Below, piece by piece: positions 15,927 to 47,136 of a DNA stretch of 56,219 nucleotides. Every line of letters begins with the position of its first letter. The first letter of the stretch is position 1. The notes below the pieces were generated by a model that was given only the letters and a program-made list of their open reading frames with translations, was not told the origin of the DNA and made no database searches. The position numbers and the translations under genes are program-made. The DNA comes from Bacteriovoracaceae bacterium UBA4573 (GTDB taxonomy: Bacteria; Bdellovibrionota; UBA1018; UBA923), in NCBI GenBank assembly GCA_002387735.1, contig DGKJ01000120.1, positions 1-56,219 of the forward strand, in the 5' to 3' direction.

Positions 15927-15930
15927 GAAT

Positions 15931-18969: not shown

Positions 18970-18987
18970 ATCGGGAGGAGTTTTCCG

Positions 18988-21144: not shown

Positions 21145-21162
21145 TTGATTGGTGTTCGTTTA

Positions 21163-22212: not shown

Positions 22213-23109
22213 ATGTTAGAGAATAAGTTTCCCGGTAAGGACCTCACGGAAGAAGATTTAAAATCAAAAGTTCCTCTTTGTGCAAAAAAATCCAGGGACC
22301 ATAGAACCATCGTGAAAGCGGCTGGTGTAGAATTCGGTGGAAAGCTAATTCCGATTTTCGCCGGGCCTAATGCTGTCGAGAATGAAAGCATGATTATGCG
22401 AACAGCAGAAGCAGTAAAAATGGCTGGTGCGCATTTCTTGAGGGCGGGCGCCTTTAAACCTTTGAGTTTTCCCTATCGAAGTGAAAAATATTTCGAACTG
22501 CGCGAAGAGGGGTTGAAACTTTTACTTAAGGCGAAGGCAGCTTTTCAAATTCCGATTATCACAGAAATTATGCACGAAACAAAGGTGGATATAGTGGCTG
22601 AAGTTGCCGATATTCTTCAGGTTGGTGCACGAAACATGCAAAACTACCCACTGCTCGAAGCAGTAGCCAGGACCTCAAAACCGATTATGCTTAAGAGACA
22701 CTACGGTGCTTCGCTTCGCGATTGGTTGGGAGCTGCCGAGTATATATTGCATGCGGGTAATCCGAATGTAATTTTATGTGAACGTGGGGTAGTGGTTCCT
22801 CACACACATCGCGCGACTTCGAGATTTCTTTTAGACCTTCAGGTTATACCGGCAGCGCAGGAGGTAACCCACCTCCCAGTAGTGACAGACCCTTCACACG
22901 CTACGTTTTGGAAGCCATGGGTTAAGCCAATGGCATTGTCGTCTATTGCAGCAGGCGCAGATGGCGTAATGATAGAAGTTCACCCGGATCCAGAAAATGC
23001 AGCAGTAGACCCATTACAGCCGATAGATTTTAGGGACTTCAAAGGTCTTATGAAGGACATGGAGCGCGTAGCTAACGCAATTGATCGAACGGTCGGTGTG
23101 TCTGCGTGA
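22213..23109 (+). CDS. Class I-beta DAH7P/KDO8P synthase family protein with altered active site
   Basis: AGP.AVE, RAGAFKP, ITE, DILQVGARNMQNYPLL, P.MLKR, ILCERG, DPSH, GVMIEVHPDP. Cys->Asn (codon 53) and KPR->KPL (codon 84) relative to DAH7P synthases. Confidence 0.88.
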   Translation: MLENKFPGKDLTEEDLKSKVPLCAKKSRDHRTIVKAAGVEFGGKLIPIFAGPNAVENESMIMRTAEAVKMAGAHFLRAGAFKPLSFPYRSEKYFELREEGLKLLLKAKAAFQIPIITEIMHETKVDIVAEVADILQVGARNMQNYPLLEAVARTSKPIMLKRHYGASLRDWLGAAEYILHAGNPNVILCERGVVVPHTHRATSRFLLDLQVIPAAQEVTHLPVVTDPSHATFWKPWVKPMALSSIAAGADGVMIEVHPDPENAAVDPLQPIDFRDFKGLMKDMERVANAIDRTVGVSA

Positions 23110-24470
23110 ATAAAAAGCTAGTTTCGATAATTGTGCGTACGAAGAACGAGGAGCGCTGGATTTCTGCAGCCTTGCAAGCAGTGTTTTCTCAGACTTATCC
23201 GAATTTTGAAGTAATCCTAGTAGACAATTTAAGTAATGATCGAACGCTAGAGAAAGCTAAAAAATTCGATGTTAGGGTCGTTTCCATAGAAGATTTTCTG
23301 CCGGGTAAAGCAATTAATCTCGGAATACGACAGTCAAAAGGTGAGTATGTGGTGTGCTTGTCGGGTCATTGTATTCCAGTTGACGATAAGTGGCTTGAAA
23401 CTCTAGTAAACACTCTAGAAGAGGATGCGAATTTTGCGGGCGTTTATGGGCGTCAACAACCGCTATCCTATAGTTCAGACCTTGATAAAAGAGATTTGAT
23501 AATTACGTTTGGACTGGACCGTCGAATTCAACATAAAGATCCTTTCTTTCACAATGCCAACAGCATTCTTCGAAGAAGCATTTGGGACCAAATTCCATTT
23601 GATGAGGCGGCTACGAACATCGAAGATCGAATATGGGCAAGCGCTGTTTTGAAAAAGGGTCTTAAAATTGTTTATGACCCGGATGCGAGTGTTTACCACT
23701 ATCATGGAATCCATCACGGTAGAGATCTGGGACGAGCAAAAAAAATCGTCAAAATACTCGAGACCTTGGAGTCTAAGACGCTTCGAAACCCAGGTAAGTC
23801 CGAAGTAAGAAAAGTCGCAGCGGTGATTCCTGTGCGGGGTTCAGATCTTGAGGTTTTTGCAGGACGCCCGTTGCTCGAATATTCAATCAGAAGCTCATGT
23901 GCGAGCAAACTCGTTGATCAAACGGTGGTAGTGTCGGAAGACGCGAAAGCTCTCGAATTGGCACGTCAGCTTGGTGCGGATATATGTTTAGAACGACCGG
24001 CGGAACTTTCATTTGACTACAGGGATATAACGGACACGTTGGTATTTGCAGATGCGGCTTTAGCAGCGAAGGGCCTCGCGCCAGACGTGGTCGTCTATCT
24101 TTCGGTGAATAGCCCGTTTAGAAGAAAACAGCTGATAGACTCAATGCTTCAAAAAATGTTTGAAAATAATTACGACAGCATCCATGCAGCATTTCCAGAG
24201 AATCGAACATGCTGGATCGAACAAAATGGGGAACTCGTGCTCGTTGGCGAGGAGTTTGTTCCAGCAAAGTACAGGGACCCTCTTTATATCAGCCTTTCAG
24301 GGCTTGCCACATGCGTTCACTCAGATGTTCTAAGAAGTGGGACAAGACTGGGTAAAAATGTTGGGCTTTTTCAAGTTGATGACTCGATTTCGCTAATGGA
24401 TATAAAAAAAATACCAAACAAAGAAATTGCGGGAAATTTAATGAGCGCCTGGGACAAGGAGTTCGGCTAG
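23106..24470 (+). CDS. Fusion: N-terminal GT2 (rhamnosyltransferase-like) plus C-terminal degenerate acylneuraminate cytidylyltransferase-like domain
   Basis: SIIVRTKNE, VDNLS.D.T, GKAINLG, GRQ.P, EDRIWA, VYHYHG; then IPVRG..FAGRPLLEYSI, VVVSED, RPAELSFD. GTGA overlap with the upstream synthase. Confidence 0.85.
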   Translation: MNKKLVSIIVRTKNEERWISAALQAVFSQTYPNFEVILVDNLSNDRTLEKAKKFDVRVVSIEDFLPGKAINLGIRQSKGEYVVCLSGHCIPVDDKWLETLVNTLEEDANFAGVYGRQQPLSYSSDLDKRDLIITFGLDRRIQHKDPFFHNANSILRRSIWDQIPFDEAATNIEDRIWASAVLKKGLKIVYDPDASVYHYHGIHHGRDLGRAKKIVKILETLESKTLRNPGKSEVRKVAAVIPVRGSDLEVFAGRPLLEYSIRSSCASKLVDQTVVVSEDAKALELARQLGADICLERPAELSFDYRDITDTLVFADAALAAKGLAPDVVVYLSVNSPFRRKQLIDSMLQKMFENNYDSIHAAFPENRTCWIEQNGELVLVGEEFVPAKYRDPLYISLSGLATCVHSDVLRSGTRLGKNVGLFQVDDSISLMDIKKIPNKEIAGNLMSAWDKEFG

Positions 24471-28500: not shown

Positions 28501-28596
28501 ACTCAAGTATTCGCCAGTTTAACAAGAAAATTGCAGCCTATTTTTAAGGCGGGAATAGGCCGATTTTTGTTCAAAAGACAGTGGCCAGTAAGATGT

Positions 28597-29609: not shown

Positions 29610-30614
<1,005 letters not shown>

Positions 30615-30630
30615 GAGCGGGGCCGAAGCA

Positions 30631-33592: not shown

Positions 33593-34226
33593 ACCCCTAA
33601 TAGTAGTCGGAGCAGGTGGTCACGCTAAAGTGTTAATAAGTACGCTTGGTCTCTTAGATATGAAAATCGAGGGAATTTGCGAAAATAATGCAGAACTAGT
33701 CGGAAAAAATTTTGCTGGGTATCAGTTAATGAGCGAGAACGAAGTATTCAGTCGATATTCTCCTGCCTCTGTATACCTTGTGAACGCAGTTGGTAGTGTT
33801 GGAGTGACAAAAAATCGCAGTGATGTTTTTGAACGATTTAAGGCGCATGGTTACCTATTTCAAACCATTGTTCATCCTAAAGCGGTATTAGCGTCCACAG
33901 TATGCCTAGGCGAAGGGGCCCAAATAATGGCTGGAGCCATTCTACAAGACGAAGTGGCGATCGGTGTAAATTCGATTGTCAATACCGGTGCGATTGTAGA
34001 CCACGATTGCGAGATTGGAAATCATTGTCACATAGCCCCCGGTGCCACGTTGTCTGGTGGTGTTAGGGTTAGTAATTCCTCACATATCGGCACAGGAGCT
34101 GTAGTAATGCAAAAAATTAGAATTGCTGAAGGTGTAGTTATTGGAGCGGGTGCGGTAGTAAATAGAGACACGGACCCACGCAGCTGTTATGTGGGCGTTC
34201 CGGCAAAGTACCTAAAGTCTGTCTAA
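33582..34226 (+). CDS. Hexapeptide-repeat sugar acetyltransferase (NeuD/PglD/LegH-like)
   Basis: VGAGGHAKV, IVHP.A, NTGAIVDHDC.IG..CHIAPG, GAGAVV, GVPA. Confidence 0.92.
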   Translation: MVVKPLIVVGAGGHAKVLISTLGLLDMKIEGICENNAELVGKNFAGYQLMSENEVFSRYSPASVYLVNAVGSVGVTKNRSDVFERFKAHGYLFQTIVHPKAVLASTVCLGEGAQIMAGAILQDEVAIGVNSIVNTGAIVDHDCEIGNHCHIAPGATLSGGVRVSNSSHIGTGAVVMQKIRIAEGVVIGAGAVVNRDTDPRSCYVGVPAKYLKSV

Positions 34227-34939
34227 GCCAATCTGTTTTTCATGAGGGATTCTACAATTATAAAATCTCTTTCTTCATCAATGTCGAAAGCTTTGTCCGC
34301 GTCCATTTCAAAGCCAACACATCTGCCGTCCCAAATATATCCAGGTTTTCTTCTCAGAAATGCGGCATTATAAAAATAAATTGAGGCGTTCATGTCCCAT
34401 ACTTTTGGGGCGGATTGTCTTGTGACCAAAGACTGCCCGCTATTCATGGGCTTACTTAAGTGAAAGTACCCTTGGTTGTCCGATTCCACTTGGTTGAAGT
34501 AAGGGTTTTTTCTCGCCTCTACTACTGAGAAACAAACGTCACATTTCGAGCTCAAAAATTTGCTAAGACCGCTGTCTAAATCAGAAAAGTCACGAATTGG
34601 CGAGGTAACGTCTAAGTCTAGTACAATATCGAAACGCTCCGAGAAATGCTTTTCTGAAAATTCGAGCGCGTGACATAGGACAGGTAACTTACCGGCGGAG
34701 TCTGTGGAAAGCTCAGGAGGTCTCAGAAACGGAGCTTCTACACCGAACTTTTGAGCAGCAGCACCGATCTCGGCAGAGTCGGTTGATACAATAATATTTT
34801 TGTCAGAGTATCGCCAATCTTTAGCGGTTCGAATGGTATGTGCGATTAAAGGCAAACCAAGAAGTGACCTAAGATTTTTCCCAGGTACGCCTTTTGAACC
34901 CCCTCGAGCACAAATGGTCACAAGTATTTTTTTTTGCAT
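34223..34939 (-). CDS. neuA: Acylneuraminate cytidylyltransferase (NeuA/LegF/PtmB-like)
   Basis: ICARGGSKGVPGKN, VSTDS.EI, RPPELSTD, LDVTSP.R, NASIY, DID...DF. Confidence 0.92.
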   Translation of the reverse strand: MQKKILVTICARGGSKGVPGKNLRSLLGLPLIAHTIRTAKDWRYSDKNIIVSTDSAEIGAAAQKFGVEAPFLRPPELSTDSAGKLPVLCHALEFSEKHFSERFDIVLDLDVTSPIRDFSDLDSGLSKFLSSKCDVCFSVVEARKNPYFNQVESDNQGYFHLSKPMNSGQSLVTRQSAPKVWDMNASIYFYNAAFLRRKPGYIWDGRCVGFEMDADKAFDIDEERDFIIVESLMKNRLA

Positions 34940-35009: not shown

Positions 35010-36842
35010 GTGCGAGAGATTCAGGGGCTGGAGTCAGTGACCAAAGAGCAAAAGTTTACGTTTTTTAAAAAGGCCCACTTCGAATTTCTAATACGCGGGC
35101 AAAAGAAAAGGGTTCTGGGGCTTTTTTTTGTAAGCGTGATTTTTGCCCTATCAGAAAGTTCGATAGTTGCTTCGGTTTATCCTTTAATTGGCTCTTTAGT
35201 ACAAACTCCAAGCGAGTCATTTCTATCAATTGATGCGCTAAATAAACTAGGGTTGCATACCTTTCTTGACCGAGCACAAGGTTCTATAATTGTTATTTGC
35301 GGTTTTATAGTTTTTGCGCAACTTTTAAAGTTCATATTTGGAGTTCTGCAGGAGGCCATTAATGCGAGAATAACTGCGGATATAATGTCCAATACTAAAA
35401 ACCTCGTATTCGAGAAACTTAGTGATTTGGAATATTCGGAACTGATAAGCAGTAAATCGGGGGAACTCTCCTATGTGGGCACTGTAGCTCCATCGAAGGC
35501 TGCCATCGCTGTATCAAACTACCTGCAGCTTGGCGTGGAATCTCTGAAGGCTGCCTTTATTCTCGCCACAATATTGGTGATCGATTTTAAAGTGACTCTC
35601 GCAATGGGAGCGCTTGGATTCTGTTTTGCAGTTTTGAATCAATATGTGACCAAAAAGGTTTCTTATATTACCGGTGCCGAGCGGCGAATTCACTCAGGAA
35701 ACTCTTTGGTTTATTTTCAGGAGTTTCTAAATGGAATCAAACAAATTTCTGTTTTCGGTGTGCAGAAATTTTGGGGAAGTTTATTTAATTCCTCCAATGA
35801 AAAGTTCGGTAACTATTACGTAAAAGATCAAAAGTGGCTTGCAATATCCAATCGGGCTTTCGAGTGTGTAAGTATTTCAGTTTGTTGCATTGCTTTAGGA
35901 GTTTTGGCCTATTTTGAACCAGCATTAATACAGCAGAAACTACCGCTAGTTTCGGTGTTTCTTTTTGCGATAATTCGATTTGTACCATCTGTAGCTTCAA
36001 TGGGGCGATTGAAAATGCAGATCGCCGGAGCGCGTTCAGACGTAGAGCGTCTGTATGATTTTTGTACCAAAGACGTAGCATCTATAAAAGACGGTACAAA
36101 AGACAACGTTAAATTCGAAAGAGGCATACGTTTTGAAAATCTAAAATTTCAGTATGAAAATGGAACTACTGTTTTTTCAAAATTAAATCTTGAAATAAAA
36201 AAAAATCAAACAATTGCTTTTGTCGGTCCTTCCGGAGCTGGCAAAACGACAATAGTAAATATGCTCGTCAAATTGATAAGACCCAGCAGTGGAAGAATAT
36301 TGATTGATGACGTCGACCTATCTAGTATTAAAATGAATTCCTGGCGAAAGCATATTGGGTTGGTGAGTCAGGATTCCTTTAGTTCCCATGGTACCATTTT
36401 AGAAAATATCGTCTTCGGTAGATCGGAATATTCTGTGGCAGAAATCGAAGCCGCCGCTCGCATGGCCAATGCCCACGAGTTCATTGAGCAACTGCCAGAA
36501 AAATATCAAACAATCGTAGGAGAACGCGGGCTCAAGCTATCAGGGGGGCAAGGGCAACGAATAGCAATCGCAAGAGCGTTATTGGCAAATCCCCCGATCA
36601 TCATATTTGATGAAGCGACGAGCGCTCTCGACAATCATTCGGAAAGCCTTATTCATCAAACAATAAAAAATCTTTCGGGAAAAAAAACGATTATCATTAT
36701 CGCACATCGTTTAGCTACAATTGAGCACGCTGACGTTATTCATGTAATTCGCGATCAAGAAATAGTAGAGTCCGGAAATTTTTCTGATTTATTGGTTAAG
36801 AAGGGTGATTTTTTCTCGCTTTATAGCAAACAAGGTCTCTAA
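35010..36842 (+). CDS. ABC half-transporter (TMD + ATPase), MsbA/PglK-like lipid-linked glycan flippase
   Basis: N-terminal TM helices, Walker A GPSGAGKTT, Q-loop, LSGGQ.QR.AIARA, Walker B IIFDEATS, IAHR. Confidence 0.9.
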   Translation: MREIQGLESVTKEQKFTFFKKAHFEFLIRGQKKRVLGLFFVSVIFALSESSIVASVYPLIGSLVQTPSESFLSIDALNKLGLHTFLDRAQGSIIVICGFIVFAQLLKFIFGVLQEAINARITADIMSNTKNLVFEKLSDLEYSELISSKSGELSYVGTVAPSKAAIAVSNYLQLGVESLKAAFILATILVIDFKVTLAMGALGFCFAVLNQYVTKKVSYITGAERRIHSGNSLVYFQEFLNGIKQISVFGVQKFWGSLFNSSNEKFGNYYVKDQKWLAISNRAFECVSISVCCIALGVLAYFEPALIQQKLPLVSVFLFAIIRFVPSVASMGRLKMQIAGARSDVERLYDFCTKDVASIKDGTKDNVKFERGIRFENLKFQYENGTTVFSKLNLEIKKNQTIAFVGPSGAGKTTIVNMLVKLIRPSSGRILIDDVDLSSIKMNSWRKHIGLVSQDSFSSHGTILENIVFGRSEYSVAEIEAAARMANAHEFIEQLPEKYQTIVGERGLKLSGGQGQRIAIARALLANPPIIIFDEATSALDNHSESLIHQTIKNLSGKKTIIIIAHRLATIEHADVIHVIRDQEIVESGNFSDLLVKKGDFFSLYSKQGL

Positions 36843-36844
36843 AG

Positions 36845-38425
36845 CTAGATTATAAATTCTTTTAAAGAGGCAGGTTCATTTACCCCAAAAAATTGTTCTG
36901 AAAAAGCACGCGCTCGAAATCTTTGAGCATTTAATTGTTCGAGCGGAAGATTTTTAATCTCTTCTAAAATGGGAACTATGGAGCGACTTTTATCGTAGAT
37001 CCATCTAAGGTCGGTGAGTCGATATAAAGGATCAAAGCAGATGTCATTCTCGCGCGAAACGTATATTACGGGTAAACCAATAGCGATCGCTTCGATTGCA
37101 GATGCACTAGCCGAATAAATTGCGATATCGGCTCTTTCTAGGTCTTCTCGTAGGCTTTTGCATTCCGAGAGTGCGATATTTTTTGGTAATGCCTTGGTTG
37201 TTACATTTAGATGGCTAATAATGGCGGACCATTTGTGCGCGGGATGCTTTCGAACTATGACTTTCCAGTCGTTGTTGTTTTCTAAATTGGCGATAATGTT
37301 TTTGGCAAAATCGGAAGTTTCAATCAAGTCGAGCAAAATCAGGATTGTGTTTTTAATGGTCTCATTTTTCGATTCAGTTTTGTAACTGCTACTTTGTCGA
37401 AGCGCGAATCCGACGGAAAGTTTCAAGCGGTGTTCCTGGCTAAATTCTCGAATAACACGGACAGCTTCTTGTCCAGCCGTGACTACGCGGTCCGGAATTG
37501 GAGCGTATAGCGATTCATCTGTTCCTAAAAAAAGGTTCATCGAACCTGGCGATACAATCGTATGCTGGTACCCAATGATCTGAGTTTTTGGACTGAATGT
37601 TCGTAGCGCTAAAACACACATTCGTTCCCATGGATTATTTTCCCAAGTGTAAACAAAGTGTGAAAGTTTTAGAGTTTTACTTATATTCTTGATCGCATAA
37701 TAGTGGCAAAGGGAGTGAATAGAGGTAGAACTTAAGAGGTCGAAAAAATATTGATATCTAAAAACGGACGTGACGTCTTTCTCGGCGAAGCGTATAGGAC
37801 CTTTTGGTGATGTAAATAGTCCCAAAATTATTCGGCCCCAAACACGAATAAGGTCGTAGGGTTCGAGAAAAAAATGTAGCGGTAAAATCCGATCTGAAGC
37901 ACGACAATGTGCGAGGGCTTTATTAAAATCGCAAAGAGGGTCGACTATCGTTAGAACTTTATGATTACCTGGGGGATTTGAAGCAAGTTCAGCCAAATTT
38001 CCAAAGTAAGGATCTTTGGAGTCACCAGAATCTTTAGGGTTTTGCAGAAGAAAACTTTTGATCAGATAAAAGGGAGTCTCGCGATCAGAACACAGACTCT
38101 GAAAGAGTTCAGCCAAGGCTCGTCGCGAAATAAAAGCATTTTTAGCAATTCTAAGGCTGACTCGTATAGAATGGCTCACAGCTTTTGAAAAAATTTGCAG
38201 TTTGGTTAAAAATGCAAGTTCTGCCGGATTTGAATCGTGCCAGATCGAGTAGCAGTGTTTTACGGAGAGGGAGGATGTTTTATTTTTTGAAGGTATCCAG
38301 GTAGCCCACCACGCGAGCGAGCAATTCAAGCTATTAAGTCTAGCAATTAGACTGCAATATTCTTGTACAAAAGTCCCGTTGGTATGGTCCGAATCGCTCT
38401 TCAACGTGGATTTCGATGGTTCCAC
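36845..38425 (-). CDS. Uncharacterised surface-carbohydrate protein with GT-B-like C-terminus
   Basis: WENNPWE, IIGYQH, VRKHP, and ADIAIYSAS.SAIEAIAIGLPVI typical of GT-B C-terminal lobes. GTG 38425 preferred (track start 38452). Confidence 0.6.
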   Translation of the reverse strand: MEPSKSTLKSDSDHTNGTFVQEYCSLIARLNSLNCSLAWWATWIPSKNKTSSLSVKHCYSIWHDSNPAELAFLTKLQIFSKAVSHSIRVSLRIAKNAFISRRALAELFQSLCSDRETPFYLIKSFLLQNPKDSGDSKDPYFGNLAELASNPPGNHKVLTIVDPLCDFNKALAHCRASDRILPLHFFLEPYDLIRVWGRIILGLFTSPKGPIRFAEKDVTSVFRYQYFFDLLSSTSIHSLCHYYAIKNISKTLKLSHFVYTWENNPWERMCVLALRTFSPKTQIIGYQHTIVSPGSMNLFLGTDESLYAPIPDRVVTAGQEAVRVIREFSQEHRLKLSVGFALRQSSSYKTESKNETIKNTILILLDLIETSDFAKNIIANLENNNDWKVIVRKHPAHKWSAIISHLNVTTKALPKNIALSECKSLREDLERADIAIYSASASAIEAIAIGLPVIYVSRENDICFDPLYRLTDLRWIYDKSRSIVPILEEIKNLPLEQLNAQRFRARAFSEQFFGVNEPASLKEFII

Positions 38426-39111
38426 TCGGTCAGCACCTTTTCCGCAAGCCAAAAGTCAAATTCATCGTGGATATCTATCGTAGTTCTAAAATCCTCTGTA
38501 GGAATAATTTCCACTACGCTCCCCAATCGTTTGCCTTCTCGAACAAGCCAAGCACGTGTAGCTGAAGCAACGCCTTGGTCCTCGCGGTAGGTAACTTTAT
38601 CTCCTCGTTCTTGTCGTGAGCTATAAACCGCTTCTGTAAGACGAACGTATCCCTCATTGGTTTTTTTCCAAAAGTGTTTGTGAGTTTTGTACCCTGAAAA
38701 GGCTGTGTGAACGGCAGGATTCTTTTTTAAATGATTCACGCATGCCGCAATCATTTCGGGGGTTCGAAATACATCAGTGGGTTGAAGGTAAACTACGATA
38801 TCGAATTTGGCTCCGATCATGTCTTCATAGGTTGTTAACGCGTGCGTGATAACAGGGTCTGGGGTAGCCGAATCAGTCGCGAGTTCTGGAGGTCGTCGAA
38901 AAGGTACTACCGCGCCCGCCTTCATGGATATTTCAGCAATTTCATCATCGTCTGTGGTTACAAGCACTTCGTCGCATACGCCAGATTCCTTAGCGTGATC
39001 AATGCTATGCACAATGAGTGGTTTTCCAGCTAATTTCCTGACATTTTTTCGCGGCAGTCCCTTAGAGCCACCGCGAGCCAGGATTATGGCGATTGTTTTT
39101 AAGTTATCCAT
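38401..39111 (-). CDS. Second acylneuraminate/ulosonate cytidylyltransferase
   Basis: ILARGGSKGLPRKN, VTTDDDEI, RPPELATD, LQPT..FR, DI....DF..AE. Confidence 0.9.
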   Translation of the reverse strand: MDNLKTIAIILARGGSKGLPRKNVRKLAGKPLIVHSIDHAKESGVCDEVLVTTDDDEIAEISMKAGAVVPFRRPPELATDSATPDPVITHALTTYEDMIGAKFDIVVYLQPTDVFRTPEMIAACVNHLKKNPAVHTAFSGYKTHKHFWKKTNEGYVRLTEAVYSSRQERGDKVTYREDQGVASATRAWLVREGKRLGSVVEIIPTEDFRTTIDIHDEFDFWLAEKVLTEWNHRNPR

Positions 39112-39141: not shown

Positions 39142-40152
39142 TTAAATGTTGTAGTATCCTCTGTACCAATGAATGAATCGGCTTATGCCTTCTTCTAATG
39201 GAACTCGGGGCGAGTAACCCAGTTCGAGTTTCGATTCGGAAATATCCGCCTCCGTAACTTCGAGATCCCCGGGTTGGAGTGGTTTTAATAGCTTTATGGC
39301 TTTTTTTCCGACGCGCTCTTCGATCTGCTGTATATATTTCAAAAGCTCGACAGGTTTGTTGCCGCCAATATTATAGATTTTAAAAGCAGCGCTACTAGAA
39401 GCCGGATCGGCTACGGTCCTGTCCCAGTCTGGGTTTGGAGCTGGGGGCGGTGTTTCAATGACCTTTAGTATCGAATCAACTACGTCGTCGATATAAGTGA
39501 AATCTCTACGGTGGCGGCCCTCGTTAAACACTTCGATCGGTTCTCCCGCTAGGATATTTTTAGTAAATGTGAAGAAAGACATGTCTGGTCTACCCCATGG
39601 ACCGTAGACAGTGAAAAATCGAAGACCAGTAGAGGGAATTCCAAAAAGGTGACTATAGTTATGAGCCATTAGCTCATTCGAGCGCTTAGTTGCGGCATAT
39701 AGTGAAATCGGGTGACTCGCATGATCATGAATTGAGAACGGAAGTTTTGAGTTAAGCCCGTAGACCGAACTAGTAGAAGCATATATTAGGTGCTTAACTG
39801 GATGGGTTCGGCAGGCCTCTAAGATATTTAAAAAGCCTACGATATTAGACTGAATATACGAGTGGGGGTGAGAGATCGAATATCTAACCCCGGGTTGCGC
39901 AGCTAAATGGACGACGATATCAGGACGCTCTGTTTTGAAAATATCCAACACGGCGGCTGAATCCGAAATGTCAACGATCAAAACCTGAAGTCGTTTGCGT
40001 TCGCCCAGGCTAGCCAAACGAGCCTTCTTGAGCGTCGGATCGTAATATTGGCTCAGATTGTCGATCCCAACAATGCTTAGATCTTTTTCGAGAAGAGCTT
40101 TGGCAACCGAAAAGCCAACAAATCCTGCGACTCCGGTGACGAGAACTTTCAT
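39142..40152 (-). CDS. NAD-dependent epimerase, UDP-glucuronate 4-epimerase (Cap1J/WbgU-like)
   Basis: VTGVAGFVG, YYDPTLK.AR, HLAAQ.GVRYS, ASTSSVYG, SLYAATK, LRFFTVYGPWGRPDM, RDFTYIDD, G..RF..WY. Confidence 0.92.
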   Translation of the reverse strand: MKVLVTGVAGFVGFSVAKALLEKDLSIVGIDNLSQYYDPTLKKARLASLGERKRLQVLIVDISDSAAVLDIFKTERPDIVVHLAAQPGVRYSISHPHSYIQSNIVGFLNILEACRTHPVKHLIYASTSSVYGLNSKLPFSIHDHASHPISLYAATKRSNELMAHNYSHLFGIPSTGLRFFTVYGPWGRPDMSFFTFTKNILAGEPIEVFNEGRHRRDFTYIDDVVDSILKVIETPPPAPNPDWDRTVADPASSSAAFKIYNIGGNKPVELLKYIQQIEERVGKKAIKLLKPLQPGDLEVTEADISESKLELGYSPRVPLEEGISRFIHWYRGYYNI

Positions 40153-40216
40153 TCGGCATATTTACGCTATTTTGATGGACATTCAAAATTCATTTTTAAT
40201 ATGAATACATATATTT

Positions 40217-42400
40217 ATGAACAAAGACGTTAAATTTGCCCTTATTGGAAATGGCCGCGTTGCTTCTCGTCATATCGAAGCGCTTACTAAGAGAATCAGT
40301 GGTGGGCAATTGGTCGCCGTTTGTGATTCCAACCCCTCCCGCTTGGAAGACAAGCGATCCTTTGGTGATCGTGTCGAAGTCTTCAATTCCAGTGCGGACC
40401 TTTATGGTTGGGGCAAATTCGATGTTGCGGCGATTGCTACTCCCAGTGGTGATCATTACGAGCATGCGAAAGAGGCTATTTTAGCTGGAAAGCATGTCGT
40501 AGTTGAAAAACCCGTCGCGCTACGCATTGAACATGCGAATGAGCTAATTTTACTGGCTGAGAGAAACAACGTAAAAGCGTGGGTTATTCACCAAAACAGG
40601 TACAATCCAGCCATTTTAAAAACGAAAGAAGCGATCGAGCGAGGGCGATTAGGTACAAAGGTGCTTGCAACAGTGCGGGTGAGATGGTGTCGAAACGCCG
40701 AGTATTATACTCAAGATAATTGGCATGGGCGTTGGGCTTCGGATGGCGGAGTTATATCACAACAGGCGATTCACCACTTAGATGCGTTGCGTTGGCTTTT
40801 CGGGGATGTAGAAAGCGTCGAAGCTGTTTGTCGAACTCGGCTAGCTCCAATGGAGTGTGACGATTTAACTATAGCGACGATGAGTTTCAAAAATGGTGCG
40901 TTGGGAATTGTGGAAGCGACGACCGCCACTCGTCCGAGAGATCTAGAAGCGTCTTTGTCGTTGTTGGGCGAACAGGGAACGATAGTGCTAGGTGGAATCG
41001 CCATGAACACCATTCAGACGTGGGAGTTTACTGCCCCTGGTGATGGAGATTCAGATGTCCCCCAACGATATTCTCAGGTAATTCCCAGTGCCTATGGTTT
41101 AGGCCACGATGTTCTTTATCAAAAGGTGGTGGATTCAATTGTTGATGGAGCTCCAATTGAAGTTTCTTTAGACGAGGGAAAGAAAACATTAGAAATTGTG
41201 CACGCACTTTATGCAAGCAACGAACTGGGACGGCGAGTAAAACTAGATGAGGGCCTTAGTTCTGCAAAACTGGGAGTTCGAACTTTAGGGAAAAATGAAC
41301 CTGGAAAAGCCCACAAAGAACTTCAATTAGTTCAGAAAAATATCTCAAATCAACTTCCGGAATTTTCTAAGAATATTGTTAATTTCGCTGGAATTATAGG
41401 GGAATCTCCGTCTCTTTTTGCGAAAAGTCCCTTAATTTGGAATTCGGTATTTGAAAAATTAAGCTTCCAAGCTTCTTACGCTTCGTTTGACGTGCCTAAA
41501 TCGGAAAACTTAGCCGCATTAGTAGACACGCTGCGAAATTCTTCGTTTTATTTGGGTGGGAGTGTCACGATGCCATACAAAATTGGCATAATGAAATATC
41601 TTGATGAAGTCGATCCTACTGCGCGTGCAATTGGTGCTGTTAACACTATTGTACGAACTAAAAACGGAAAATTAGTAGGGTATAATACGGACGGGATAGG
41701 TGGAGTCGAGTCGATTAAAAAGGGAGGCGTAGAGCTCGCAAATGCTAGAACGCTATTAATTGGAGCCGGTGGAGCTGCTCGATCGCTCGCATTCTGTATC
41801 GCGAAAGCCTCTCGTTCGGGAAAACTTTGGATTACCAATCGGACAGAAGAAAAAGCATTAACTTTGGTAAAAGACTTAAAACGAGAATTTAATAATGTGG
41901 ATTTTATCCCATTCGAAGAAATTGCAGAGATATTACCGCAATTGCAATTGCTGGTGAATGCCTCCACCGTGGGTCAAAGTGGCCTTCAAAAAAATGCTAA
42001 AGGCGACTTTGTAAATCTGGGACCTTTCTCCCCTCTTTCTCGTGTGGAACCCCCTAGCTTGATGGTGCAGGGCAGTGTTTCAAATCCTGAGATTGAACGC
42101 GAACTTCTTTCCAGCTCGTTGGATTCGATTATGAAGAATTCAGAAGAATCACTGAAACGGTGTTTATTGCTAAATCGGCAAGCAATTGTATTCGATGCAG
42201 TATATTCACCACTAGAGACTGTATTTTTGGCGCACTCAAGGCAGACAGGTCATAAGACCATTAATGGAAAAATGATGAATATTTTTCAGGCTGCTGACGC
42301 CATGTTTAATAAGGTTTTCCATGAGTACTTGTCTAGTCGAGGGTTGTGGACCGAGACTACCTACAAAAAAATTGTCGATCAGATGCAGCTCGTCTGGTGA
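40217..42400 (+). CDS. Fusion: Gfo/Idh/MocA sugar-nucleotide dehydrogenase (WlbA/WbpB-like) plus shikimate dehydrogenase (AroE)-like domain
   Basis: aa 1-~353: IGNGRVA, TPSGDH, VVEKP, QNRYNP, WHG.W..DGG....QAIH. aa ~390-727: KSP, VTMPYK, IGAVNT, GYNTD, IGAGGAAR, NRT, FDAVY.P, G..M...QA. Confidence 0.88.
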   Translation: MNKDVKFALIGNGRVASRHIEALTKRISGGQLVAVCDSNPSRLEDKRSFGDRVEVFNSSADLYGWGKFDVAAIATPSGDHYEHAKEAILAGKHVVVEKPVALRIEHANELILLAERNNVKAWVIHQNRYNPAILKTKEAIERGRLGTKVLATVRVRWCRNAEYYTQDNWHGRWASDGGVISQQAIHHLDALRWLFGDVESVEAVCRTRLAPMECDDLTIATMSFKNGALGIVEATTATRPRDLEASLSLLGEQGTIVLGGIAMNTIQTWEFTAPGDGDSDVPQRYSQVIPSAYGLGHDVLYQKVVDSIVDGAPIEVSLDEGKKTLEIVHALYASNELGRRVKLDEGLSSAKLGVRTLGKNEPGKAHKELQLVQKNISNQLPEFSKNIVNFAGIIGESPSLFAKSPLIWNSVFEKLSFQASYASFDVPKSENLAALVDTLRNSSFYLGGSVTMPYKIGIMKYLDEVDPTARAIGAVNTIVRTKNGKLVGYNTDGIGGVESIKKGGVELANARTLLIGAGGAARSLAFCIAKASRSGKLWITNRTEEKALTLVKDLKREFNNVDFIPFEEIAEILPQLQLLVNASTVGQSGLQKNAKGDFVNLGPFSPLSRVEPPSLMVQGSVSNPEIERELLSSSLDSIMKNSEESLKRCLLLNRQAIVFDAVYSPLETVFLAHSRQTGHKTINGKMMNIFQAADAMFNKVFHEYLSSRGLWTETTYKKIVDQMQLVW

Positions 42401-42435
42401 TCACCGGTTAACGAAAGAAGTGATTTTTAAAAAAC

Positions 42436-43449
42436 ATGAATAAAAGACGCATTGCTCTTTCGGTAGACCACCAATTGTGCTCGGGAGATAACCAACTCAA
42501 TTCCCCTGTAATTCTCATGACCGGAACAGCCAGGGCTGGAAAAACCACGTTGGGTCGAATTATGGGTTCCTGCAAGAATGTGGAGTTTTTTGACGAACCC
42601 TGGATGTTGATGACGCTCATTATCTCAGCGGGGCTCTCCTTAATCGATCGTAATCTGGCGATCGGAATGTTTAAAACCTATTTTTATGAGCTAATTAACG
42701 ATCGCATTCTAATGCGAGCTGTCAGTTTTCGACCCACTGATTTAAGTTACATTGGGCATCAAAAAGCACCCGAAGAAATTAAAAATCGAATGCTTAAGTT
42801 GCATAGCCGCAATGACGTTCGAAAGTATATTTTGGAAAAAAAAACGGTCATAGTATTAAATCTCACCGACACGACGCCATATTTAAGTCTTTTGAAAGAG
42901 ATCTTTCCAGATAGCCCCATTATTCATGTTTTTAGTCCGGGTTATTGCGTGGCGAAGGAAACCACCCTAAAGGGATGGTACACCGATTCGGAACTAAAGA
43001 GGCCTACCCACGGGCAGCTCTATCGGCCCGTTTCGATATCTAAATCCAACAGAAATAATAAAAGATACTTTCACTTTTGGGTGCGACCGGGCGATGAGCA
43101 AGAATTTCTTAAGCGTTCCGAATTTGCTCGGGGACTTTATTATTGGCGTCGAATAATTGAAATGAGCAAACTGCCAAAAGTGAGTGTCAAAAATGATTCA
43201 AAATTGATCTCGTTTAATTTTTACGATGCACTTAATGATCCAAAACGAATCAGGTCATTGTTAAAAAAGATGAATTTTAAACCGACTCAACGAACTCAAA
43301 CCCTGTTTCATAATCTGACCCCGCCTAATTTAAATATTACTAATTCCGAAATAAAAAGTGTTTCAGCAGGTGATTGGGATTCAATCGAAAATTTGCATCG
43401 GCAGCTCGGCATTTCGGAACTATTATCCGACAGTGTTCTTAGGAGATAA
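42436..43449 (+). CDS. Sulfotransferase-like P-loop protein
   Basis: ILMTGTARAGKTTL resembles the 5'-PSB loop; FDEP motif follows. The 3'-PB Arg is not evident (IIHVFSP). Confidence 0.55.
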   Translation: MNKRRIALSVDHQLCSGDNQLNSPVILMTGTARAGKTTLGRIMGSCKNVEFFDEPWMLMTLIISAGLSLIDRNLAIGMFKTYFYELINDRILMRAVSFRPTDLSYIGHQKAPEEIKNRMLKLHSRNDVRKYILEKKTVIVLNLTDTTPYLSLLKEIFPDSPIIHVFSPGYCVAKETTLKGWYTDSELKRPTHGQLYRPVSISKSNRNNKRYFHFWVRPGDEQEFLKRSEFARGLYYWRRIIEMSKLPKVSVKNDSKLISFNFYDALNDPKRIRSLLKKMNFKPTQRTQTLFHNLTPPNLNITNSEIKSVSAGDWDSIENLHRQLGISELLSDSVLRR

Positions 43450-43454
43450 TTTTA

Positions 43455-44387
43455 ATGAAAGATCAAGATCTAGTAAGAAAGTATTTTAGGGAAAACGCAA
43501 ACACCTGGATTCAGGATGCCTACCTTAATAAGGGACATACTTATTCAATGGGCGAGGCCCGCAATCGGCGCGTGCTTTCAGTTTTATCCGAGCGATTTAG
43601 AAACGAACCGATACAGGTAGTAGATCTGGGTTGTGGAGGTGGAAATCTATGTCGTGAAATCTCGGCGCAAGGATACTATGCAGTAGGAGTAGATCAATCT
43701 CCCACGATGATTGCTGAAGCTCGCAAGTCGCTAGAGACACTAGCTCCAGACCAAAGGAAGCGAATTCGATTCGAAGAAAAAAACATTCTAAATAATTCGC
43801 TCGATGCCGGAAAATTTAACGCATTAACTTCTATGGGAGTTTTAGGGTACTTAGAAAGCGACGAACTGTTTTTTTCCGAAGCGAACCGATTGTTAGCTGA
43901 TGATGGCTTGCTTTTAGTGTCGGCAAGAAACCGGTTATTCAATATGATTAGCATAAGCGACTACACCGTGAAGGAGATTGAATCAGGAGGAGCAAAGGAG
44001 CTCGTCGAAGAGATTAAAGAATACATTCAGCCACTCCCAGATGAAGATGTATCCAAATTTTTAAAAGCAATTTCTCAAATAAGTGCTCAACTTTTAAACG
44101 AACCAATTCAACAATCTGAACGTAAGGACTCGCTTTCGACTTATTCAGTTCCAATTGAAGCGCGTCAACATACACCGCGCCAGTTGAAGCGCGTTGCTGA
44201 AAAATATGGATTCGAGTTTAAGAAATTTTTTGGTGTTCATCCGCATTTAATGATGGCCGGCCTTAACTACAAAATGACTCCTGGCATATATAATCGACTT
44301 TCATCTGCTCTTGAGGAGTTAGCTCATTTGCCGTCGAGTGTTATATGGAGCTCAGTTTTGATAGGTGTTTTTTCGAAAAAAGCGTAG
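43455..44387 (+). CDS. Class I SAM-dependent methyltransferase
   Basis: VVDLGCGGG, GVDQSP.MI, FNALTSMGVLGY, L.DDG.L.VS. Confidence 0.88.
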   Translation: MKDQDLVRKYFRENANTWIQDAYLNKGHTYSMGEARNRRVLSVLSERFRNEPIQVVDLGCGGGNLCREISAQGYYAVGVDQSPTMIAEARKSLETLAPDQRKRIRFEEKNILNNSLDAGKFNALTSMGVLGYLESDELFFSEANRLLADDGLLLVSARNRLFNMISISDYTVKEIESGGAKELVEEIKEYIQPLPDEDVSKFLKAISQISAQLLNEPIQQSERKDSLSTYSVPIEARQHTPRQLKRVAEKYGFEFKKFFGVHPHLMMAGLNYKMTPGIYNRLSSALEELAHLPSSVIWSSVLIGVFSKKA

Positions 44388-44400
44388 AATCAAACAGCTC

Positions 44401-45579
44401 ATGAAAACAAAACGGAAAATCTGCATAGTGACTGGATCGCGCGCTGAATATGAGCTCCTGCGCCCACTAGTTAGAGAGGTACAGTCTGATCCGACGTTGA
44501 TATGCAAATTGGTCGTCACGGGAATGCATTTAAGTCCGGAGTATGGCCTTACTTACAAGCAAATCGAAGCAGATGGTTTCAGAATTGATGCAAAAATTGA
44601 AATGCTACTTTCTAGCAATACCGAAACCAGTATTACTAAATCTGTCGGGTTGGGCGTCTTTGGATTTGCGTCAACTTACGAAAAAATAAAGCCCGATCTA
44701 GTGGTATTATTGGGAGACAGGTTTGAAATTTTGGCTGCAGCACAAGCCGCAATGTTTATGAAGGTGCCCATCGCTCATATTCATGGCGGGGAACTTACTG
44801 AAGGGTTGGTTGATGATTCAATTCGCCATTCGATCACTAAAATGGCGCTTTTGCATTTTTCAGCCACTGAAACCTATCGAAAACGTATTGTGCAATTAGG
44901 AGAGGACCCGAGGAGGGTTTTTAACTTCGGCGCCATTGGAGTAGATAATGCATTAGCGTCGAGTCTTCTTTCTCGGAAGCAATTCGAAAAGAAAATTAAC
45001 TTTAATCTCGGGCAGATAAATTTTTTAGTGACTTACCATCCGGTAACTCTAGAAGAGACAGACAATAAAAAGGGAATTAAAGCCCTTTTAAGTGCGCTCG
45101 ATCATTTTCCTTCCTCGCACATTATTTTTACCCGAGCGAATGCCGATGCAGGCGGTAAGGAAATTAATTTAGCGATCGAAAGTTATTTAAAAAAAATAGG
45201 GCCTCGCGCGATTCTGTTGACGTCTATGGGTCAGGAAAATTACTTTTCCGCTATTAGTTTAGTCGATGCCGTAATTGGTAATTCCTCGAGCGGTATTATC
45301 GAAGTACCTGCCTTTAACAAGCCGACCGTAAATATAGGAGAGCGGCAGCGGGGGCGCGAAATGGGAGCCTCCGTATTAAGCTGTAAAGAACAGACTGCTG
45401 ATATAGTTAAAAGTATTAAAGTCGCCTTAAGTGGGAATTTTAAAAATCGCTTATGCCAAGGGGACTCGCCCTATGGTCATGGCGGAGTAGCCACTAAGAT
45501 TAAAAACGTATTAAAGCGCACGCACCTCAAGGGTGCTCTTATGAAGAAATTTTATGACGTATCTTTCAAATACGAATAG
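44401..45579 (+). CDS. neuC: Hydrolysing NDP-HexNAc 2-epimerase (NeuC/LegG family)
   Basis: VTGSRAEY, TGMHLSPEYG, LGDRFE, HIHGGE, DDSIRHSITK, TYHP, NAD.GG, GNSSSGIIE.P, NIGERQ.GR. Start ATG 44401. Confidence 0.95.
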   Translation: MKTKRKICIVTGSRAEYELLRPLVREVQSDPTLICKLVVTGMHLSPEYGLTYKQIEADGFRIDAKIEMLLSSNTETSITKSVGLGVFGFASTYEKIKPDLVVLLGDRFEILAAAQAAMFMKVPIAHIHGGELTEGLVDDSIRHSITKMALLHFSATETYRKRIVQLGEDPRRVFNFGAIGVDNALASSLLSRKQFEKKINFNLGQINFLVTYHPVTLEETDNKKGIKALLSALDHFPSSHIIFTRANADAGGKEINLAIESYLKKIGPRAILLTSMGQENYFSAISLVDAVIGNSSSGIIEVPAFNKPTVNIGERQRGREMGASVLSCKEQTADIVKSIKVALSGNFKNRLCQGDSPYGHGGVATKIKNVLKRTHLKGALMKKFYDVSFKYE

Positions 45580-46471
45580 GTTAAGAATTGTTGTAATGGG
45601 GTGTGTTGATTTTAGTTACACTCTTTTGGAAACATTGTTAAATCTGAATATCAACGGCGTCTCAATTGTTGGGGTGGTAACAAAAAGCGCATCGTCCTTT
45701 AATTCTGATTTTCGAAACCTTAGTCCGATTGCCGAAAAACATGAAATTCCGGTTTATTTCTGGGATAAGTTTAAACAAGCTGATTTCAATCTTTGGCTTA
45801 AAGAAATGAAGCCGGATCTACTTTATTGTTTTGGATGGTCCAACCTCTTAAACGAAGAAATATTACAGATCCCCCTTCGTGGAACTGTCGGATATCATCC
45901 TGCGAAACTGCCACAGAATCGTGGTAGGCACCCAATCATTTGGTCACTCGTGTTGGGATTAACTAGAACTGCATCGACTTTTTTTATGATGAGTCAAGAC
46001 GCAGACAGCGGACCGATAATTTCGCAAGTGGATGTCGATATAAGCGAAAGTGACGACGCAAGGTTACTTTATGAAAGTTTAAAAAAAGTAGCTTGTATTC
46101 AGGTGGTAGAGATTACGAAGGCGTTTCTTTACGGAAGTATTGAGATGCGCCAGCAGAATTCCCATAGTGCAAATTACTGGAGAAAGCGTACGAAAGAAGA
46201 TGGAAAAATTGATTGGAGAATGAGCGCCGAAAACATTCGCAATTTAGTACGGGCTTTGTCACGCCCCTATGTTGGCGCTCATTGTCAATATGGAACATCC
46301 GAAGTTAAGATTTGGAAAGTGCAATCAGTTGATTGCGATTTGATTAACATTGAGCCTGGAAAAGTGTTAAAAATCGACACGACAGGAATATTAGTTAAAT
46401 GTGGTGTTGGTGCACTAAACATCATTGAACATGAATTTCCGTCGGGACTGGCGGTAGGGGATTATTTATGA
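45554..46471 (+). CDS. Sugar-nucleotide N-formyltransferase (Fmt-like fold)
   Basis: FGWS, GYHPAKLP..RGRHPIIW, AD.GPII, RAL.RPY.GA; located in the glycan operon. Confidence 0.85.
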   Translation: MTYLSNTNRLRIVVMGCVDFSYTLLETLLNLNINGVSIVGVVTKSASSFNSDFRNLSPIAEKHEIPVYFWDKFKQADFNLWLKEMKPDLLYCFGWSNLLNEEILQIPLRGTVGYHPAKLPQNRGRHPIIWSLVLGLTRTASTFFMMSQDADSGPIISQVDVDISESDDARLLYESLKKVACIQVVEITKAFLYGSIEMRQQNSHSANYWRKRTKEDGKIDWRMSAENIRNLVRALSRPYVGAHCQYGTSEVKIWKVQSVDCDLINIEPGKVLKIDTTGILVKCGVGALNIIEHEFPSGLAVGDYL

Positions 46472-47136
46472 AAGATATCGTAGTAATTGCTCCGCACGCC
46501 GACGACGAGACATTGGGCTGTGGAGGAACACTTCTTCGGCATAAGCAACTGGGAGATAGAATTCATTGGGTATTGATTACTTCGATGAATAAAGATTCGG
46601 GCTATAGTTCACAACAAATTAAAACTCGAAACGATCAGATCGCCAGTGTGAAGGCAGAGTATGGATTTAGTACGTTTAACAATTTAGGTTTTTCCCCTTC
46701 AAAACTCGACGCGACGCCGTTATCGGAAGTAATTAATTCCTTACGGTCCGTATTTGAACAAATTCGTCCGCATACAGTTTATACCCCATTCGAGGGGGAT
46801 GCCCATACAGATCATATGGTTACATTTAAAGCCGTGAATGCTTGTGTGAAGTCATTCAGATCCAGCTCAGTCTCGCGGGTCCTGGCATATGAAACAATTT
46901 CCGAAACGGATAGTAATCTCTCGACCATTGGTGGTTCTTTCAGACCTAACGTGTTCTGTGACATAGGGAACCACCTAGATAGAAAAATGCGAATTATGAA
47001 CATCTACGAATCGGAACTTGAGCCCTTTCCATTTCCTCGAAGTCTCGTCGCGATCAAGGCCTTGGCGGAATTAAGGGGGGTATCGGCTCGTGCGAAAGCT
47101 GCAGAAGCTTTTGTTCTTCTTAAAGAGATTTTCTAG
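46468..47136 (+). CDS. PIG-L/LmbE family N-deacetylase
   Basis: IAPHADDETLGCGG, D.H.DH, YET.SET, K...M..Y.SE..PFP.PRS, AEAF. Confidence 0.9.
   Translation: MKDIVVIAPHADDETLGCGGTLLRHKQLGDRIHWVLITSMNKDSGYSSQQIKTRNDQIASVKAEYGFSTFNNLGFSPSKLDATPLSEVINSLRSVFEQIRPHTVYTPFEGDAHTDHMVTFKAVNACVKSFRSSSVSRVLAYETISETDSNLSTIGGSFRPNVFCDIGNHLDRKMRIMNIYESELEPFPFPRSLVAIKALAELRGVSARAKAAEAFVLLKEIF

Follow-up and report, generated by a model that had tools for sequence, protein, structure and literature searches.

A fused WlbA-like and AroE-like dehydrogenase in a Bacteriovoracaceae glycan island belongs to a conserved gene module, probably for an unusual acidic surface sugar

We analyzed a stretch of 56,219 nucleotides from Bacteriovoracaceae bacterium UBA4573 (GCA_002387735.1, contig DGKJ01000120.1, positions 1-56,219 of the forward strand). 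This whole stretch is called the window here, and coordinates count from its first letter. At 40217..42400 on the plus strand it carries one gene for a 727-aa protein that joins a WlbA-like dehydrogenase domain of the Gfo/Idh/MocA family to a domain with the fold of the shikimate dehydrogenase AroE. The two halves form part of a conserved core module that combines five functions: a phosphoenolpyruvate (PEP) aldolase resembling 3-deoxy-D-arabino-heptulosonate 7-phosphate (DAHP) synthase, a WlbA-like dehydrogenase, an AroE-like dehydrogenase, a cytidine monophosphate (CMP) transferase of the KdsB/NeuA/PseF type, and a GT2 glycosyltransferase fused to a second cytidylyltransferase. The module probably builds an unusual acidic surface sugar. 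We consider it likely that the fused protein works in a 3-deoxy-2-ulosonic acid pathway; the fuller reading, in which the module yields a CMP-activated 3-deoxy-2-ulosonic acid and the fusion acts as an epimerase couple, stands in our judgement at even chances. A first-pass annotation of this DNA had proposed either such an oxidizing and reducing pair or an AroE paralog acting on a cyclitol or ulosonate for the glycan, and its interpretation was supported in part. It had not foreseen that the fusion is the minority form of a widespread unfused pair, nor that the partners are a DAHP-synthase-like aldolase and CMP-transferases.

The fusion is, as far as sequence comparison can tell, a real gene and not an artefact, because identical DNA occurs in three independent assemblies, the exact protein is found on several contigs, and its homologs are conserved through the junction. 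The open reading frame (ORF) begins at the first ATG after a stop and runs in a single frame for 727 codons. Four Pfam domains score above their cut-offs on the protein, GFO_IDH_MocA N (residues 6-125), GFO_IDH_MocA C (137-343), Shikimate_dh_N (402-478) and Shikimate_DH (506-584), so that the architecture first described, one 727-aa ORF with a WlbA/WbpB-like part and an AroE fold, is borne out. The 2184-nt gene shows zero differences between the window, the NCBI assembly GCA_002430665.1 and the Logan assemblies of SRR2119805 and SRR5325078, and 18 contigs carry the 727-residue protein without change. A search for the same architecture returned about 20 fused homologs, in addition to the two halves as separate neighboring genes in more than 30 genomes. 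Eighteen of the fused homologs (711-739 aa, 41-51% identity) align across the junction, with S349, L352, G353 and N378 invariant on its two sides. Further fused copies came from Anaerolineales, Planctomycetales, Victivallales and Acidobacteriota in a scan of one genome per species. An assembly artefact or a lost stop is rejected, on sequence evidence, from the identical DNA in the three assemblies and the conservation across the junction. Promoter and terminator sites were no more frequent than chance in a scan of positions 39900-42700.

The N-terminal domain (residues 1-345, 40217..41251, plus strand) was defined from Pfam, its relatives in the PDB and its invariant columns. It scores well above the Pfam cut-offs for PF01408 (88.1 bits, cut-off 24), PF02894 (97 bits, cut-off 22.9) and PF22725 (90.7 bits, cut-off 27), and contains a GxGxxA Rossmann start, an EKP motif with Lys98, and the motifs HQNRYN, WHGRW and QQAIHHLD. 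E97, K98 and P99 of the EKP motif are invariant in the 18 fused homologs, as is Asp37 at the end of strand 2, which we read as a preference for NAD. The best solved relatives are 3q2k (E 8e-72) and 3q2i (E 1e-67), at about 45% identity over the whole domain; their PDB titles are generic, and we take them to be the UDP-N-acetylglucosaminuronic acid (UDP-GlcNAcA) 3-dehydrogenases WlbA of Bordetella pertussis and Chromobacterium violaceum. WbpB (3o9z) is far more distant (E 7e-14). In an unrooted maximum-likelihood tree, the fused Gfo domains form one clade (support 96/92) that lies next to the WlbA clade, not inside it; this single clade suggests a single origin of the fusion. WlbA and the fused domain share the Gfo/Idh/MocA fold, the catalytic Lys of EKP, the Asp that follows strand 2 and the S..LG end at the C terminus. 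The WlbA substrate, UDP-GlcNAcA, is a sugar acid with a carboxylated pyranose ring. They differ in their motifs, the fusion clade having HQNRYN, WHG(T/R)W and QQAIHH where WlbA has KQNRRN, WRGxW and NQASHY. They differ also in their company: the fusion lacks WlbB/WlbC partners and is tied to an AroE-like reductase, a PEP aldolase and CMP-transferases, not to aminotransferases. Also in this genome are an unfused WlbA-like gene with 47% identity to the N-terminal domain of the fusion, beside a gene for a 382-aa protein (contig C63, 21318-23521), and a WbpB-like gene beside ORFs of 190 and 375 aa (contig C63, 35374-38058). These are probably ordinary diacetamido-uronic acid cassettes, their flanking genes being taken for an aminotransferase and an acetyltransferase from gene size alone.

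The C-terminal domain (residues 390-727, 41384..42397, plus strand) has an AroE fold according to Pfam, NCBIfam, PDB alignments, a residue table and a tree. Its best NCBIfam match, aroE TIGR00507, reaches 170.6 bits where 200.2 are required, and the domain stays below the cut-off of each shikimate dehydrogenase model among the 25 NCBIfam matches listed. Fifty-two sequences of the AroE-like clade, from fusions and stand-alone proteins alike, were set against eight canonical and two paralogous shikimate dehydrogenases; in the tree the clade is monophyletic with support of 100/99. The motifs named in the first-pass annotation were all found, namely AKSP (402-405), TMPYK with K455, NTD with D492, NASTVG (581-586) and FDAVY (659-663), and the catalytic Lys and Asp that it considered retained, K455 and D492, are invariant in 52/52 clade members. 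N476, S404, Y663, Q691 and the NADP-type R542 of an (N/S)-R-(T/S) motif are also kept in all or nearly all of the 52. Other pocket positions are changed in a fixed manner. Position 14, S or T in all eight canonical sequences, is Ala in 52/52 (A402), which confirms that the AKSP motif is an altered SxSP, while S16 is kept; a His four residues further on is Trp in 52/52 (W408); Asn59, present in the eight canonical sequences, is Ser or Ala in most clade members (S449 here); and a conserved Leu has become Asn (N688). We take S14 and S16 of the SxS motif and N59, in E. coli numbering, to be positions of the shikimate pocket. By these residues the domain is a catalytically competent dehydrogenase, probably one that uses NADPH, and its pocket still seems shaped to take a six-membered ring with a carboxylate, though not shikimate.

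Among 1.84 billion representative proteins searched, 214 matched the AroE-like domain at E 1e-30 or better. Of the best 150 of these 214, most stand alone, are 340-380 aa long and have a match that spans the insertion described below; few are fusions. The nearest solved structure is 1nvt from M. jannaschii. The domain shares with the AroE/YdiB family the two-domain fold, the catalytic Lys and Asp, the Asn of GAVN, the second Ser of SxS, the pocket Tyr and Gln and an NRT-type NADP motif. It differs from that family by an N-terminal extension, an insertion of about 50 residues in the long forms, the pocket changes, its separate clade, scores below the family cut-offs and a host genome without the shikimate pathway. 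The domain also matches the 5-ketofructose reductase of Gluconobacter (7cok, E 6.5e-20). Since this enzyme belongs to the shikimate dehydrogenase family and reduces a keto-sugar, the fold is able to act on such substrates; 7cok is nevertheless a distant relative, is not linked to glycan synthesis, and acts on a substrate without a carboxylate.

We built an AlphaFold2 model on the 18-sequence alignment of fused homologs. The mean predicted local distance difference test score (pLDDT) of 82.7 and the predicted template modeling score (pTM) of 0.57 point to two well-formed domains whose mutual orientation is uncertain. Between the domains a linker of about 35 aa had been proposed. A linker exists, yet its true part covers only about 10 residues (approximately 354-363). 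The segment 346-363 (41252..41305, plus strand) consists of the end of the Gfo domain, with the conserved S349..L352 G353, followed by this linker, which varies in length and sequence among fused homologs and contains, at 354-360, the sole disordered residues (pLDDT below 50). Residues 364-389 (41306..41383, plus strand) extend the AroE-like module at its N-terminal end and comprise a helix (364-373) and the invariant Asn378; stand-alone AroE-like relatives share this extension. The long stretch noted earlier between NASTVG and FDAVY was confirmed by split PDB alignments and by the model. An insertion at residues 587-655 (41975..42181, plus strand), in the NADP-binding half, extends about 50 residues beyond the solved shikimate dehydrogenases and is modeled at high confidence as a small hairpin and a 29-residue helix (623-651). 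It occurs in fused and "long" unfused relatives and is missing from "short" unfused ones and from solved shikimate dehydrogenases. Because the long unfused relatives carry it, the insertion is a subfamily trait and not a product of the fusion.

Of special interest is the gene context, in which the fusion is a rare form of the unfused pair. We clustered the ORFs of 85 loci and scored co-occurrence by tblastn within 10 kb, comparing 47 AroE-like loci with 38 loci that have only the Gfo gene. The aldolase family PF00793 was found in 46/47 AroE-like loci against 3/38 Gfo-only loci (Fisher p 3e-19), and the sole AroE-like locus lacking it lies on a contig of 3.5 kb truncated within the AroE-like gene itself. 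A CMP-transferase was found in 43/47 against 5/38 (p 6e-14). DegT aminotransferases show the opposite trend, a depletion in the AroE-like loci (6/47 against 18/38, p 6e-4), and NeuB does not differ significantly (7/47 against 3/38). Two gene orders recur. The first, Gfo - AroE-like - PF00793 - CTP - CTP, where CTP stands for a cytidylyltransferase gene, occurs in Uhrbacteria, Deltaproteobacteria and Sulfurovum; the second, CTP - GT2::CTP - Gfo - PF00793 - AroE-like, occurs in single-cell genomes of SAR11 and Prochlorococcus and in Marinomonas ostreistagni, Roseibium and Denitromonas. The fused relatives consistently have as neighbors a PF00793 gene, CTP_transf_3 genes, a GT2 gene and a short-chain dehydrogenase/reductase (SDR) gene. 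Full-text searching of the literature returned no description of the fusion or of the module, and the proteins appear in databases only under generic or, as argued below, misleading names.

The window holds the module in two parts. The PF00793 gene and the gene for the GT2 glycosyltransferase fused to the second cytidylyltransferase (GT2::CTP2) lie 17 kb upstream of the fusion, and a CMP-transferase and an SDR gene lie just upstream on the opposite strand. GT2::CTP2 (454 aa, 23106..24470, plus strand, assigned from Pfam and NCBIfam) is conserved in the core module and is 51% identical to its homolog in the related locus L003. The CMP-transferase (CTP1; 236 aa, 38401..39111, minus strand) matches PF02348 and, below the cut-off, PseF (116.7 bits), and is 44-59% identical to module copies elsewhere. 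The divergently transcribed SDR epimerase/dehydratase (336 aa, 39142..40152, minus strand) matches the Pfam families Epimerase and GDP_Man_Dehyd, with all NCBIfam matches below cut-off, and its homologs are frequent neighbors of the module.

The aldolase (298 aa, 22213..23109, plus strand) belongs to PF00793 and exceeds the cut-off for TIGR01361, with 285 bits against 267.75. KDO8P synthase scores only 105 bits, and the comparison of these two scores rules out a KdsA paralog of a Kdo-like pathway; canonical kdsA- and kdsB-like genes are apparently present on contig C71 of the genome. Relative to 1vs1 and 1zco, the enzyme has KPLSFPY for KPRTSPY, Asn53 for the metal Cys, a three-residue PHT insertion (PHTH) and PSHATFW for PSHPAGR. 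In 39/39 clade members the Arg of KPRT is Leu (Leu84, in KPL(T/S)), Phe86 and the PHTH block are invariant, and the metal-Cys position holds Cys in 17 and Asn in 22. In type I-beta DAHP synthases, the Arg and Thr of KPRT presumably hold the phosphate of erythrose 4-phosphate and the Cys presumably binds the metal. Given this role, the replacement of the Arg by Leu suggests that the aldose is bound in a manner unlike erythrose 4-phosphate, and it may be another aldose. Members of this subfamily share 67-79% identity across phyla, are very abundant in metagenomes and are named "3-deoxy-7-phosphoheptulonate synthase" by annotation pipelines. The module resembles the Kdo (KdsA/KdsB), NeuB/NeuA, PseI/PseF and LegI/LegF pathways in combining a PEP-condensing synthase with a CTP_transf_3 CMP-transferase in a glycan locus. 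It differs in that its synthase is of the type I-beta DAHP synthase lineage with a remodeled aldose pocket, not KdsA or NeuB, and in that tailoring falls to a WlbA-like and AroE-like pair. A literature search found no described pathway of this composition.

The remaining gene content of the genome (2.8 Mb, 94% complete) bears on what the two shikimate-type enzymes can be doing. Our family searches, which matched most or all of 14 control genomes, gave no hidden Markov model (HMM) match in this genome for aroC, aroB or aroQ and only a MurA-like one for aroA; tblastn gave no match to AroA, AroD or AroK. The window holds the sole AroE-family gene and the sole DAHP-synthase-like gene of the genome. 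The AroE domain is thus indeed the only one of its family here, as the first-pass annotation had considered possible, but it is not a canonical shikimate dehydrogenase, given its sub-cut-off scores and fixed pocket changes. Carriers that have the shikimate pathway keep a separate canonical aroE (197-260 bits, against 96-150 bits for the module copy). Because the genome lacks the shikimate pathway, neither enzyme can serve aromatic amino acid synthesis here; the pair has been recruited to another job and was probably acquired together with the glycan island. The fusion is absent from all 40 relatives examined within the family and order, and 38 of them lack any AroE-family gene, so auxotrophy for aromatic amino acids may characterize the lineage. 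For MurA, the closest named homologs come from metagenome-assembled genomes of Bdellovibrionota and Bacteriovoracia (59-61% identity), affinities that would fit, weakly, a predatory and auxotrophic lineage.

In the mechanism that we propose, the aldolase would condense PEP with an aldose not bound like erythrose 4-phosphate to give a 3-deoxy-2-ulosonic acid, which the CMP-transferase would activate for transfer to a surface glycan. With NAD+, the WlbA-like domain would oxidize a hydroxyl on the ring, either of the free sugar acid or of the CMP ester, and the AroE-like domain would reduce the resulting keto group from the other face with NADPH. The net result would be an irreversible epimerization pulled forward by the cellular NAD+/NADPH ratios, and the fusion would hand a labile keto intermediate straight from one site to the other. 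The epimerized carbon would most likely be C4, by analogy, because it lies two atoms from the carboxylate-bearing carbon, like C3 of dehydroquinate for AroE and of UDP-GlcNAcA for WlbA. The oxidation and reduction of one hydroxyl, already suggested in the first-pass annotation, remains the most economical candidate mechanism, because the two enzymes are adjacent or fused, their predicted cofactors divide between NAD and NADP, and aminotransferases are depleted. The other early suggestion, that the AroE part is a paralog serving the glycan, gains support from the module, and its substrate is probably a ulosonate. A precedent for the chemistry exists in IolG and IolW of Bacillus subtilis, which convert myo- to scyllo-inositol via scyllo-inosose by NAD+ oxidation and subsequent NADPH reduction. 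There too, two dehydrogenases act on one ring carbon, with NAD+ and then NADPH, for a net epimerization; in contrast to the fusion, both have the Gfo/Idh/MocA fold, they are unfused, the substrate is a neutral cyclitol and the pathway is catabolic.

Several points weigh against this proposal. The choice of C4 rests on geometric analogy, the NAD/NADP split on sequence motifs, and the substrate, product and cofactors are predictions. GT2::CTP2 and its second cytidylyltransferase have no place in the scheme. Because the aldolase exceeds the NCBIfam cut-off for DAHP synthase, its product might be plain DAHP, which would need a phosphatase, and none was seen in the core module. In the window, the aldolase and GT2::CTP2 are distant from the fusion, and the aldolase is nearer to proteobacterial copies (63-74% identity) than to those of other fused loci (52-56%). 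The fusion gene itself is closest to copies from Anaerolineales, Planctomycetales and Acidobacteriota, and the module of the window may be a mosaic of two sources. Finally, the two enzymes could act at different steps and not on one carbon. We regard this last variant, in which the pathway is the same and the domains are not an epimerase couple, as a possible though less probable account: one domain might prepare the aldose and the other tailor the ulosonic acid, or one might convert a primary alcohol to an -aric acid and the other set a stereocenter. The association within the module requires only a shared pathway, not consecutive steps, and the remodeled aldose pocket implies an unusual aldose that needs a maker. 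Fusion and strict adjacency, however, most often mean consecutive steps, both domains resemble enzymes for ring secondary alcohols of carboxylated six-membered rings, and the AroE-like pocket keeps its carboxylate-binding residues. A more specific proposal, which we put forward as doubtful, is that the module is the missing route to heptulosonic/heptulosaric acid (Dha) or to an undescribed ulosonic acid of marine bacteria such as SAR11 and Prochlorococcus. The DAHP-synthase-like enzyme would condense PEP with a non-phosphorylated or carboxylated tetrose, and the pair would set a non-arabino stereocenter by NAD+ oxidation and NADPH reduction; glycan synthesis would then have taken over two enzymes of the shikimate pathway wholesale. 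The named matches of a protein search with the aldolase included no Acinetobacter, which says nothing for or against this proposal. Dha occurs in the lipopolysaccharide core of Acinetobacter haemolyticus, and according to reviews its biosynthesis and activated form are unknown.

Alternatively, the Gfo domain could be an ordinary WlbA-type UDP-GlcNAcA 3-dehydrogenase for a 2,3-diamino uronic acid, with the AroE domain as an accessory, for example in cofactor turnover. The close match to the WlbA structures and the position of the fused clade beside WlbA in the unrooted tree speak for it, yet we consider it improbable: no WlbB/WlbC-type partners are adjacent, DegT is depleted, the genome already has WlbA-like and WbpB-like genes on contig C63, and the clade motifs differ (QQAIHH for NQASHY, WHG for WRG). 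Moreover, the two nucleotide sites are separate, so the AroE domain could not recycle a cofactor held tightly in the Gfo domain. A WbpB/WlbA cassette is ruled out by the same gene context; as stated at the outset by the earlier annotation, the WbpB partners are not adjacent, and the DegT and acetyltransferase genes sit in a separate cluster of the legionaminic acid type. Scarcely more credible, and if anything less so, is a route to a carbocycle, in which the Gfo domain would carry out dehydroquinate-synthase-like chemistry (oxidation, phosphate elimination and reduction) with tightly bound NAD+, and the AroE-like domain would reduce a dehydroquinate-like ring to a quinate-like cyclitol acid on the glycan. 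This would explain the co-occurrence of DAHP-synthase-like and AroE-like genes without aroB or aroQ, and would fit the small residue at the N59 position, a position at which the quinate-accepting YdiB has a small residue as well. On the other hand, the aldolase has lost the phosphate-holding Arg, so there may be no phosphate on its product for elimination, and the KdsB/NeuA-type CMP-transferases are near-obligate (43/47), while the CMP ester of a carbocycle could not be a glycosyl donor. We know of no Gfo/Idh/MocA enzyme with dehydroquinate-synthase-like chemistry. Finally, an artefact or a housekeeping shikimate dehydrogenase is highly improbable, even though the AroE domain is the only member of its family in the genome. 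The three identical assemblies, the 18 contigs and the conserved junction argue against the former; the housekeeping role is ruled out by the sub-cut-off scores, the fixed pocket changes, the absence of matches to aroA, aroB, aroC, aroQ, aroD and aroK, and the separate aroE of other carriers.

The rest of the glycan island contains further sugar genes. Between 24479 and 34939 lies a nonulosonic acid cluster of the legionaminic acid type: a 318-aa Gfo/Idh/MocA protein (24479-25435), a DegT protein (25557-26741), a PseB/LegB-like dehydratase (29619-30614), an SDR (30607-31443), a CBS and nucleotidyltransferase protein (31428-32498), NeuB (32480-33592), a hexapeptide acetyltransferase (33579-34226) and a second CMP-transferase (34223-34939). 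Because this cluster sits alongside the module, the island seems to encode two different ulosonic acids. A role of the fused Gfo domain as a PtmF/LgaF-type oxidoreductase of the cluster is unlikely, since the cluster has its own Gfo/Idh/MocA gene and NeuB is not associated with the pair. Two adjacent minus-strand ORFs within the same region (26738-28506; 297 and 292 aa) have no Pfam match and no homolog in related loci.

Between this cluster and the fusion are a gene for an MsbA/PglK-like ABC exporter (610 aa, 35010..36842, plus strand; assigned from Pfam, and from NCBIfam on its homolog in locus L052), which is a frequent module neighbor, and one for a 535-aa protein (36845..38452, minus strand) with weak similarity to TIGR04326 and PseG, possibly a CMP-sugar-dependent glycosyltransferase. 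Directly upstream of the aldolase gene, on the same strand and tightly packed (17401-22209), are genes for a 522-aa protein without family, a 718-aa B12-binding radical SAM protein and a methyltransferase, which might methylate the module product. Still further upstream, genes for a HisH-like glutamine amidotransferase and a HisF-like cyclase come after a 371-aa ORF without family (14811-17318); together the three look like a WbuX/WbuY/WbuZ-type set for acetamidino groups on amino sugars. On the other side, 36 bp downstream of the fusion, a 337-aa ORF (42436-43449) with a P-loop-like GTARAGKTT motif has no Pfam or NCBIfam match and no homolog seen in related loci; it might be a kinase or a sulfotransferase. 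The region 44365-47136 encodes a NeuC-type hydrolyzing UDP-GlcNAc 2-epimerase, which passes its cut-off with 469.7 bits, and after it a formyltransferase and a PIG-L-type deacetylase, a gene order that suggests removal of an N-acetyl group from a sugar and its replacement by N-formyl.

If our interpretation is true, annotation pipelines misname thousands of genes, the aldolase as "3-deoxy-7-phosphoheptulonate synthase" and the reductase as "shikimate dehydrogenase", and metabolic reconstructions credit organisms with unused parts of the aromatic amino acid pathway; in the present genome, these two are the only "shikimate" genes there are. Ulosonic acid synthesis by a PEP-condensing synthase and a CMP-transferase is a known scheme, and what would be new is a synthase and one tailoring enzyme of shikimate-pathway origin. 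The module would exemplify the joint movement of the shikimate dehydrogenase and DAHP synthase folds into sugar-acid chemistry, and the fusion would be a redox epimerase in one polypeptide, powered by the imbalance between NAD+ and NADPH. Cultured carriers exist, among them Marinomonas ostreistagni USM7, Denitromonas iodatirespirans IR-12 and a Roseibium sp. The module is widespread, being carried by SAR11 and Prochlorococcus, which are abundant in the sea, and by Patescibacteria, Acidobacteriota and a likely predatory member of the Bdellovibrionota, and an undescribed acidic surface sugar in these organisms would bear on recognition by phages and grazers and on the chemistry of marine polysaccharides.

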